NCBI RefSeq assembly: GCF_964213995.1
Contig: NC_135821.1
Coordinates: 4,836,001-4,900,000 of the forward strand
Direction: 5' to 3'
From: Mustelus asterias
Taxonomy: Eukaryota
Length of the DNA stretch: 64,000 nt
How positions within the stretch are numbered: the stretch's first letter is position 1; the number at the start of each line of letters is the position of its first letter. The notes beneath the pieces are model-generated. The model was given only the letters and a program-made list of their open reading frames with translations. It did not search any database and was not told where the DNA came from. Made by a program: the position numbers and the translations under genes. Shown piece after piece: positions 3,500 through 6,622 of the stretch.

Positions 3500-3704
3500 C
3501 AGCTCTGATTAGCTCTGGGTATCATGCCCCAGCCCCTCTCATTGATTCATTGGTGCCTGGATTCCTGATTGGCTGTCAGGGGTTGTCAATCATCATTGGT
3601 GATGTCATTCCCAGTTTGAATGCAGGATGTCCCAGTGGTATAAATACAAGAGCTTGTGAGGGGGAAGGTCAGCTTGTTGTTGTGTGACTCTTATCCTCAG
3701 TGAG
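3500..3704 (+). promoter_or_regulatory. Ferritin copy 1 promoter (inverted CCAAT boxes, TGATGTCA, TATAAATA)
   Basis: Several ATTGG motifs, TGATGTCA at 3600, TATAAATA 3639-3646; block conserved in front of every copy. Confidence 0.75.
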
Positions 3705-6622
3705 ATGGCTTCCCAAGTGCGTCAGAACTACCACAAAGACTGTGAGGATGCTGTTAACAAGCAGATCAACCTGGAGCTCTATTCCTCCTATGTTTACCTC
3801 TCCATGGTGAGCTTTACATTTCTGGGAGTCCTAGTTTCAGTTTAACACGGTGACTGTGTTGCATTGTGAGCAGGTAGAATGTCTCTAGGTTGATGAGTTG
3901 GTTTTAGATATCTCCCTCCCCCAGACTGAATAGAGTCAACACTCCCAACAGGAGCTTGTTCCTGTTTTAGAATTGCTGTGTCCAGTTTGGAGTTTGGCTC
4001 TAAAACTAACTCCAGGGTTCCTGGCCAAAAGAGAAAATGCTGGAAAATCTGAACAGGTCAGGCAGCATCTGTAAGGAGAGGAGTTGATGTTTTGAGTCCA
4101 GATGATCCTTCATCAAAACTGATGAAATGTTGAGCTTTAGACAAAGGGTCATCTGGACTCGACGTCAGTTCTTTTCTCTCCTTTACAGGTGCTGCCAGAT
4201 CTGCTGAGATTGTCCAGCTTTTCACCTTTTAGTTTCAGATTCCAGCATCTGCAGTAATTTGCTTTTATCCTGGGTTCCCTGAGGTTTCCAGTAGAAAGGT
4301 CATGGATGGGATTTAATGTCCTTGCTTGTCCTGAAACTGTAAAATCCTGCCTGAGGCCAATGGACCTTCCCATGCTCTGCCCTTTGGCTGCTCCAATTCC
4401 TGTGGTGGGTGTTCCATGGACCTACTCAACCTTCCCAATTAGGGGGAAGCAATTAAATGTAATTGGGTGGCTGGTTGGTGAAATATTAGCTAACTAACTG
4501 CTCAGTTTATCCTCTTCCCTCAGTGAGTAAATCCTGATGTGCTGAACTCCTGCCTGAAATGTTGCTCTAGTCACTGACTGAACGATTTTCTTTTCCATCA
4601 GTGGGAGTGAAAGGAGAAACTAGAAGCAGGCCATTCAGCCCTTTGAGCCTGTTCTGTCACTCACTTTTGATCATGGCTCATAATATCCTGATCCTGCCCC
4701 AACCCACAACATCCTATGAGCTTCAAGTATTAATCTCTCAATATTTTGGCCTCATCTTGATTTTACAAGATTATCAAATTCAATATCCTGATCCCACCTT
4801 CCCTACCCTTAGCACCAAGAGCTATATCTAATTTCTTCAAATCTCTCAATGTTTTGGCCCCAACTACTTTCTGTACATTTCACACATTCACCACCCTCTG
4901 GGTGAAATTTCTCCTTTCTTCCTTCCTAGAAGGTCTATCCCTTATCTTCAAAATATCACCCCTAGTTCTGGGCAGCACATTGGCAAGTTCTTTCTGAATC
5001 TACCCTCTCTAATCCTGTTGGAATTTTATACATTTGAGATCCTCTCTCTCTACTCCAATGAGTATAATAAATGACTTGGCTTCTCCTGGTATCACAGACC
5101 TGCCATTCTGGTAAACCTCTGCTGTACTCCTTCTAATTTCTCCATGTTGATGAAACAATTCAAAAAGCATGATTGCTCTTGGGTTTTCCAGGGATGGACT
5201 GTCAACATAATGAGGAAAAACATTATTTGACATTCTAGGAAATACTCAGTCCCTTAATTAAAGGCCAGCTATTGAGGTCAAAAAGGATGAGTGATCGACT
5301 GTCAAGCTGCTGTTTTTTTTCTTGGGTCAAACCTGACTCTCCCTTGTCTCTCCCTGCAGTTCTGTTACTTTGACCGGGATGATGTTGCCCTGAGTCACTT
5401 TGCTGAGTTCTTCAAGGAGCAGTCACATGAGGAACGGGAACACGCTGAGAAACTGATGGAATTCCAGAATAAACGTGGAGGCAGAGTCATCCTGGAGGAT
5501 GTCAAGGTTGGATCTTTCTCTTGGGAGAATCTTCTAAGATGCAATTTAGATTTCTGAACAAGTTTCTTCTCATTTCTAATGTTGGTGCAAAGTGAGGATG
5601 GGTACATGACAAGTTGGTGTGATGTGGATTTTAGATCAGCTGATCAAATGATTGGAAGAGGAACTATTTTCTGGTCTATTAACACAGACTCTGGTGCTGA
5701 CACAGGCAACTGGTGGTGAATCTGGGGCAAAGTTATAAACATTGAGTAAATTCCTTTCTGAAGAACTTTAGTTAAAACATCCCCAATTAGCTGATCTTTG
5801 TCCAGAAATGGTCTCCAATGTCATCCCAGTGATTCTAATACTCAGCATGCTGCTCCATGGACTAATTGTCACCTTCCCCTCCCCAACAGAATAATTAAGC
5901 TTTTCCCCCCTCTTTCAGAAGCCAGAGCAGGATGAGTGGAGCAATGGTCTGGAGGCCATGCAGAGCGCTCTGCAGATGGAGAAGAATGTGACCCAGAGTC
6001 TGCTGGATCTGCACAAACTCTCCTCTGGGAACACTGACCCTCATGTAAGTTGTGTAATGGGTTTTCCAGTGGTGTTGAGATGATATTGGAATCTACAATA
6101 CCCGCTGTGACAGAATTCCATCGCTTTGTGTTTTCCCCCTTGGGGGTTTGTTCTGCAAAGGTCACCTACACTGAACCTGATCACTAAACAGATCCATTCT
6201 GAGGCAGCAATGTTTCCTGATCCATTCACTCCCAGTTTAATGGAATTGTGACTTGCCACTGGGTAATTCTGGTCAAATCTACACATTACCCATGTAATGT
6301 GGCAGAAGTTAACACTGCTGCCTCATGGGTTTCCTCCCACAGTTCCAAGGTGTGTGGGTTAGGTGGATTGGCCATGCTAAAATGCCCCTTGGCATTACAA
6401 GATGTGCAGATGGTGGGAGAAGGGATACTTCATCTGGATAATAGAACTCACTGATTTCTGTCTTCCTGTTCCTAGCTGTGTGACTTCCTGGACACTCTCT
6501 ACTTGGATGAACAAGTGAAGATGATCAAGAAGCTTGGCGATCACATCACCAACCTGAAGAGACTGGGAGCCCCTGAGAATGGCATGGGAGAGTACCTGTT
6601 TGACAGGCTCACCCTCAACTGA
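3705..6622 (+). CDS. Ferritin heavy/middle chain-like (FTH1-like) copy 1, 173 aa
   Basis: Exons 3705-3806, 5360-5506, 5919-6044, 6476-6622, all GT-AG phase 0, same intron positions as vertebrate ferritins. [52 protein letters not shown]../[15 protein letters not shown]../[20 protein letters not shown]27,Y34,E61,E62,H65,E107,Q141 present. TATA 3639, AATAAA 6698. Confidence 0.95.
4022..4268. mobile_element. Penelope-like inverted terminal-repeat remnant in intron 1 of copy 1
   Basis: Imperfect inverted repeat with two decayed hammerhead-like cores; absent from copy 2 intron 1; flanked by c(a/t)gggttcc. Confidence 0.55.

Follow-up and report, generated by a model that had tools for sequence, protein, structure and literature searches.

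Analysis of a 64,000-nucleotide (nt) stretch of the genome of the shark Mustelus asterias (NC_135821.1, positions 4,836,001 to 4,900,000; hereafter, the window) revealed a tandem array of nine four-exon ferritin genes, delimited by self-comparison and exon mapping and arranged head-to-tail on the + strand, in which no 5′ iron-responsive element (IRE), the textbook control of vertebrate cytosolic ferritin, was found. Our data indicated that the array probably represents an old ferritin subfamily under transcriptional control, outside control by iron regulatory proteins (IRPs), with bulk ovarian ferritin as its likely use. An escape from IRP control had been proposed in the initial annotation of the window and was supported here, in that no IRE was found in any copy or intergenic stretch and the promoter, judged from its sequence, looks real and old. 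In copy 1, the following elements precede or adjoin the start codon:

3549..3599, + strand: three inverted CCAAT boxes (ATTGG at 3549, 3568, and 3595, i.e., -90, -71, and -44 from the TATA box)
3639..3646, + strand: TATA box, TATAAATA, in a zone 95-100% identical to copy 1 among the copies
3668..3675, + strand: initiator-like site, whose putative +1 (A3671) lies 32 nt past the opening T of the TATA box
3671..3704, + strand: 5′ untranslated region (UTR) of type A (copies 1-4, 8, and 9), putatively 34 nt, with no IRE and no stable structure
3690..3708, + strand: near-IRE geometry, consisting of C3690, a possible helix (3691-3695/3704-3708), two extra bases (3696-3697), and the loop motif (3698-3703)

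TATAAATA starts at 3639 and the ATG at 3705, a gap of 66 nt, with CAGTGA at 3698-3703, one base ahead of the ATG, and the coordinates given in the initial annotation were right. The very short 5′ UTR described there (~35 nt) would be 34 nt long from the putative start at A3671, and the distribution of the motif also held, with CAGTGA in copies 2-4, 6, 8, and 9, TAGTGA in copy 5, and neither in copy 7.

Absence of an iron-responsive element

Rfam was run on the window and on three promoter-sized pieces (promoters 1, 6, and 7), with matches considered up to E 10. This covariance-model search, suggested as a check alongside the initial annotation, gave no IRE match in the window at gathering level, and no IRE family appeared among the matches up to E 10 in the window or in promoters 1, 6, and 7, the other matches being weak and unrelated. 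A rule-based scan of the 64 kilobases (kb) returned zero strict IREs on both strands; its re-implemented strict rule recovered 200 of 200 planted hairpins, a check of the geometry of the rule only. Three + strand sites had one defect (50 shuffles gave 1.1 ± 0.9), and none of them lay within 1.3 kb upstream of an ATG; a scan allowing a broader loop gave eight sites against 7.9 expected, the nearest being 714 nt from an ATG. The nine intergenic stretches (2.1-8.0 kb), all inside the window, contained no IRE either, leaving a private upstream exon with an IRE without a candidate. An IRE in the 3′ UTR was rejected, as CAGTG occurs in none of the 10 short 3′ UTRs.

The loop motif itself was compared with the features of functional IREs given in the available text of Volz 2021 (PMC8466369). 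The conclusion of the initial annotation that no canonical IRE is present was confirmed: the position of the bulged C8 is T in six copies, copy 1 included, and A in copies 5 and 6, with a C two bases beyond it in type-A copies, and the upper helix forms two of five pairs in type A (both G-U) and three of five in type B. The bases of the C14-G18 pair are present in seven of nine copies (copy 5 has U14, copy 7 none), with a pair probability of at most 0.011 in all eight copies that have the loop motif. The AGU triplet is not presented in an apical loop, since three motif bases (G, U, and G) lie in a stem of the minimum-energy fold of 3685-3715, and the mean unpaired probability of the triplet was 0.03-0.53. 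N19, which should be unpaired and preferably U or C, is A, a base found there in 16% of classic IREs according to the same text (PMC8466369). Among relatives, an IRE structure was not conserved: it was absent from copies 5-7, CAGTG was not encodable in Heterodontus, and only Cetorhinus was compatible. These results show that an IRE should not be called from a CAGUG close to a ferritin AUG alone, and the best explanation of the CAGUGA beside the AUG is that it does not work as one.

The initial annotation had also drawn a weak hairpin that would occlude the AUG. This structure was not supported: it contains an AGU triloop with N19 paired, scores +0.2 to +2.7 kcal/mol, accounts for no more than about 1% of the ensemble, and does not occur in copies 5-7. 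Of 200 shuffles of the 5′ end of copy 1, 194 folded better than the native sequence. Triloops lacking N19 are described in PMC8466369, as far as its available text goes, as having lost regulation, with binding 100-1000 times weaker. In the near-IRE geometry listed above, the possible helix of five base pairs includes two G-U pairs and takes in the AUG, with no lower helix; the fold has -0.7 kcal/mol alone, and each pair has a probability below 0.005 in context. It is missing from leaders of types B and C, and the pattern was defined post hoc, after the sequence had been seen. Its two extra bases also bear on a rule stated in the available text of the same source, that the distance from C8 to the loop must equal five pairs (PMC8466369).

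Leader and promoter of the nine copies

The ATGs of copies 1-9 stand at 3705, 10056, 15336, 23735, 29621, 37665, 41953, 51448, and 61641, each flanked by a purine (-3) and a G (+4). Their leaders are of three types, A (copies 1-4, 8, and 9), B (copies 5 and 6), and C (copy 7). The loop motif precedes the ATG by 7 nt in the type-A copies and, in type B, by 13 nt (copy 6) or 15 nt (copy 5); MAFFT leaves the type-A and type-B motifs out of register, but inspection by eye allows a homology with gaps. The six type-A leaders (initiator and UTR) have one variable site in 37 and count therefore as one observation, not six. With promoters masked, about 4.6% of UTR-sized pieces taken at random from the window contain CAGTG, so the motif is only mildly beyond chance. 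A GUU-repeat stretch was also observed in type-A leaders (3675-3687); germ-line RNA-binding proteins favour GUU-type motifs. At the other end of the genes, AATAAA follows the stop by 40-80 nt in 10 of 10 copies (0-9), which implies that both UTRs are very short.

The sequence TATAAATA occurs at nine sites on the + strand of the 64 kb, and all nine are ferritin promoters, one per copy, with TATA-to-ATG distances in copies 1-9 of 66, 66, 66, 66, 67, 65, 75, 66, and 66 nt. All nine promoters carry three to four inverted CCAAT boxes, against 0.5 expected per 150 nt, at near-fixed offsets (mostly about -132, -101 or -90, -71, and -44), the further box near -131 to -144 being present in six of nine copies. 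These boxes are presumably bound by NF-Y or Y-box factors. A CAG at TATA+31 to +33 is invariant in all nine copies, with a variable spacer ahead of it, and fits an initiator consensus. The CCAAT and TATA zones showed 88-99% and 95-100% identity to copy 1, respectively, and outside the motifs identity was 22-78% in the spacer, 34-52% in the other leader types, and 36-91% further upstream. Metal-response, antioxidant-response, and E-box motifs were not common to the promoters; a site resembling a cAMP-response element is present in seven of nine. In the promoter of copy 4, 22765-23579 is an inverted copy (95%) of 21635-22450, and it cuts off the distal CCAAT box (near 22738) from the remaining boxes.

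Relatives and the shark-wide clade

A search with exon 2 ranked shark ferritins first among single-domain matches. The midpoint-rooted tree comprised 55 rows, six window proteins and 49 of 120 homologue matches, with most fragments, fused predictions, unnamed rows, and some redundant named rows left out and without a mammalian H or L chain. In it, the window copies joined Mustelus within an all-shark clade of 31 rows (support 100/100; six shark orders), set apart from a second catshark/skate ferritin clade. Great white shark copies fell in the same clade as the window copies, from which we infer that the array is part of the expansion described in a Greenland shark preprint (bioRxiv 10.1101/2024.09.09.611499). 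In its available text, the preprint gives 155-179 ferritin copies for the Greenland shark with an origin at least 250 million years ago, and describes ferritin clusters common to the Greenland and great white sharks, the largest Greenland shark cluster being ovary-specific; the word "iron" occurs zero times in its main text, which contains nothing on IREs, leaders, or promoters. The array is thus probably the expansion reported there as ovary-specific.

Evidence on the promoter in other species came from the over-extended N-termini of predicted proteins among the 120 homologues, which were back-translated. The extension of Cetorhinus P0056 (basking shark) back-translates to the TATA region at 30/30 nt, with an implied TATA-to-ATG distance of 69 nt, and that of Heterodontus P0042 (horn shark) matches the promoter at 37/39 nt, with an implied distance of 76-79 nt. 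Scores of that height were reached at only eight window positions, which is the number of copies with the segment intact. CAGTGAGATG is encodable at the same place in Cetorhinus, and CAGTG is not encodable anywhere in the Heterodontus extension. On these two outside proteins, the short leader would occur in three shark lineages and the motif would be dispensable. The over-extension of the Cetorhinus prediction is explained by the in-frame ATG 12 nt upstream of the TATA box; in the array, this ATG (3627-3659 and equivalents) is in the ferritin frame, but a stop closes it off in the type-A copies. In the extension of Pristiophorus P0044, a stretch compatible with TATA lies 57 nt ahead of the start; it was not counted, as its match of 16/21 nt was reached at 18 window positions.

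Gene copies and turnover in the array

The coding exons of copy 1 and the remaining copies are as follows:

3705..3806, + strand: copy 1 exon 1; purine at -3, G at +4
5360..5506, + strand: copy 1 exon 2; Pfam Ferritin PF00210
5919..6044, + strand: copy 1 exon 3; PF00210
6476..6622, + strand: copy 1 exon 4 with stop; AATAAA 75 nt downstream
9859..12671, + strand: copy 2 (TATA 9990, ATG 10056); intact, type-A UTR
15126..19902, + strand: copy 3 (TATA 15270, ATG 15336); broken, with a stop in exon 2 and exon 3 not found
23579..26212, + strand: copy 4 (TATA 23669, ATG 23735); intact open reading frame, distal promoter displaced by the inverted segment
29424..30190, + strand: copy 5 (TATA 29554, ATG 29621); broken, type-B UTR with TAGTGA
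37470..39800, + strand: copy 6 (TATA 37600, ATG 37665); type-B UTR, intron 1 starting with AT and not GT
41747..43874, + strand: copy 7 (TATA 41878, ATG 41953); intact, type-C UTR without CAGTG
51250..53621, + strand: copy 8 (TATA 51382, ATG 51448); intact, type-A UTR
61443..63860, + strand: copy 9 (TATA 61575, ATG 61641); intact open reading frame, type-A UTR

Six of the nine copies are intact, each encoding 173 residues, and three are broken; the tail of a tenth ferritin copy occupies window positions 1-24. Exons 2 and 3 scored above the curated cut-off of Pfam PF00210, and exon 4, which alone has no Pfam match, matched solved ferritins at E about 1e-20. E24, Y31, E58, E59, H62, E104, and Q138, which we take to be the ferroxidase-centre positions by equivalent numbering, are kept in all seven reconstructed proteins, and by these residues the copies appear to be ferroxidase-type (H/M) ferritins. 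Residue 141, adjoining the ferroxidase site, is Met in all seven copies, and residue 6 is Cys in six of seven (Arg in copy 1).

The reconstructed coding sequences (copies 1, 2, 4, and 6-9) differ by 4-17 of 522 nt, and this near-identity, against the wide divergence of leaders and introns, suggests gene conversion. The seven sequences contain 25 non-synonymous and nine synonymous variants (ratio per site, pN/pS, 0.7), among them two R>W changes at CpG codons. This ratio and the three broken copies show turnover in the array. In copy 5 (29621-29742), exon 1 is fused to exon 3 at a short common CAGAT stretch by a deletion that removes exon 2 and both introns, and exon 1 is also 9 nt short. Copy 6 is probably mis-spliced because its intron 1 begins with AT (37767); its frame is otherwise open. 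Remnants of reverse transcriptase and endonuclease of the long interspersed nuclear element (LINE) type were observed at 16264-17877, 32664-33518, and 56686-59678, in intron 1 of copy 3 and between copies. Long inverted repeats at 19206-19291 and 27061-27144 gave sub-threshold matches to microRNA models and are probably mobile-element debris.

Proposed regulation and alternative explanations

In the regulation that we propose, each gene would use its own compact promoter of three to four inverted CCAAT boxes, a TATA box, and an initiator, with transcription starting about 32 nt after the TATA box and yielding an unstructured, IRE-less leader of 33-43 nt. By established IRE rules, such a leader would not be bound by IRP1/2, which would then be unable to repress translation, so that output would be set by transcription and copy number. 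Bulk ferritin would probably be made in the ovary, in line with the expression reported for another shark (Greenland shark), and its timing would be set by development and not by cellular iron. The most likely function would be iron storage or oxidative buffering for large yolky eggs. The proposal predicts transcription starts near TATA+32, no IRP binding, and iron-independent translation. A wider scenario, which we offer tentatively and hold with less than even confidence, is that shark ferritins, at least 250 million years ago, diverged into a somatic arm under IRP control and a massively amplified, IRE-less ovarian arm with CCAAT/TATA promoters, in which dosage drives the iron loading of eggs and leaders may carry the wreck of an IRE. 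It seems very unlikely that type-A leaders, in addition, keep a non-canonical switch overlapping the AUG.

Several observations weigh against the proposed regulation. The three broken copies and the pN/pS of 0.7 imply that some copies may not be expressed, and the conserved promoters could also reflect recent duplication or gene conversion within the array. Of the 208 CAGTG sites on the two strands, only the six in type-A leaders, which have one variable site in 37, show the near-IRE geometry; its chance is 1.3-1.9% given a CAGTG and, with promoters masked, 0.013-1.4% per random leader depending on strictness. Cross-species support consists of two predicted proteins whose extensions are assumed to be unspliced; the Cetorhinus extension, used as a query, found only itself, and neither 3862 candidates nor 1.84 billion representatives yielded a match to a profile built from the promoter in conceptual translation. 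The tree contains no Greenland shark sequence, and the preprint, in its available text, describes the Greenland shark copies as at least 90% like human ferritins (bioRxiv 10.1101/2024.09.09.611499). A single literature search turned up no precedent for a CCAAT-oocyte promoter.

The alternative that best survives, although we consider it rather unlikely, is that CAGUGA is the non-functional fossil of an ancestral cap-proximal ferritin IRE whose 3′ arm was lost by deletion together with the remaining UTR. One such deletion would account for the short UTR and the motif together. The loop begins about 28 nt from the putative cap, near the usual site of ferritin IREs (nt 3-37 in zebrafish FTH1; Volz 2021, Table S1, PMC8466369, available text), [C/T]AGTGA is present in eight of nine copies, and CAGTGAGATG remains encodable in Cetorhinus. 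However, CAGTG arises by chance in about 4.6% of UTR-sized pieces, no IRE model matched even up to E 10, and the motif shifts register from one subtype to another, is lacking in copy 7, and could not be encoded by the Heterodontus extension. A fossil would be compatible with escape from IRP control, from which it differs on history alone.

Less probable is the explanation that the array is mostly decaying by birth and death, in which case the missing IRE would be without physiological meaning. The turnover described above fits it, with three of nine copies broken, a pN/pS of 0.7, and LINE remnants filling introns and spacers. Yet conservation is higher in the promoter motifs than in the sequence around them, these motifs have matches in two other shark orders, six of the nine genes remain intact, and a related cluster is reported to be ovary-expressed.

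It is very unlikely that an atypical element overlapping the AUG, similar in position to the ACO2 IRE, binds IRP or another protein and gates initiation on type-A mRNAs. The combination of a C, a 5-bp helix, and the loop motif is rare by chance, although the six type-A leaders amount to one event, and the ACO2 IRE likewise spans 5′ UTR and coding sequence; the Cetorhinus spacing is also compatible. Against this stand the post hoc definition of the pattern, its pair probabilities (<0.005), its -0.7 kcal/mol, and the lack of a lower helix, as well as copies 5 and 6, which retain the 5′ pentamer and lose its partner and the C. The hairpin of the initial annotation, for its part, is a triloop without N19, which is reported not to function (PMC8466369, available text).

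The initial annotation had further suggested a splice acceptor at the motif, an idea that remains weak: the pyrimidine tract is weaker than in all 23 real acceptors of the array and decays in copies 5-7, with a pyrimidine fraction of 0.70, 0.60, or 0.40 against 0.75-0.95 and a longest run of 3-6 against 7-16, and a level of 0.65 is reached by 19% of 1903 YAG sites. An upstream non-coding exon with an IRE spliced to the CAG at 3698-3700 can hardly be credited, for although type-A copies have a YAG after 70% pyrimidines, 4 nt ahead of the ATG, and copies 5-7 have one in a similar position, the acceptor is weaker than any real one, the intergenic stretches are IRE-less, each upstream copy ends in AATAAA (10/10), and an intronic location would leave the conserved TATA and CCAAT elements unexplained.

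Comparison with known systems

IRE-less vertebrate ferritin (mitochondrial ferritin, FtMt), tandem ferritin expansions, and the shark expansion itself are already known, and a 5′ IRE is stated, in the available text of PMC13026281, to be characteristic of all ferritins. Our literature searches, which mostly did not cover subscription journals, found no paper on the IRE status of shark ferritins. The exception confirmed in print, FtMt, is a retrocopy. If our reading is true, a large, old, intron-containing, IRE-less ferritin family would exist and would supply the mechanism behind the shark expansion and the ovary expression reported for it.

Like genes with the vertebrate ferritin 5′ IRE (FTH1/FTL; RF00037, RF02253), the array genes have four exons and, in seven of nine copies, a CAGUG near the putative cap; unlike them, they have no C8 at a distance of five pairs, no five-pair upper helix, no lower helix, no model match, and a leader of about 34 nt that ends at the motif. 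With the ACO2 IRE, the array shares a loop motif close to the AUG and an AUG inside a potential stem, and differs in two extra bases that break the spacing and in a fold that is unpopulated, whereas ACO2 is rated a full IRE (SIREs High, 28.9 bits; Volz 2021, Table S1, PMC8466369, available text). FtMt resembles the array in being a vertebrate ferritin without an IRE, tissue-restricted and regulated without IRP; it is, however, an intronless, mitochondria-targeted retrocopy, whereas the array genes are tandem, with introns and no N-terminal extension (PMC13010531, available text). Among expanded families, the Greenland shark preprint describes clustered copies as common across shark orders (bioRxiv 10.1101/2024.09.09.611499, available text), and the array presumably corresponds to its ovarian cluster. 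The hadal snailfish, with 14 tandem copies of fthl27, offers a parallel in tandem ferritin amplification that raises dosage, although, according to the available text, which contains nothing on IREs, the snailfish expansion is recent, broadly expressed, and linked to oxidative stress (PMC10746142).

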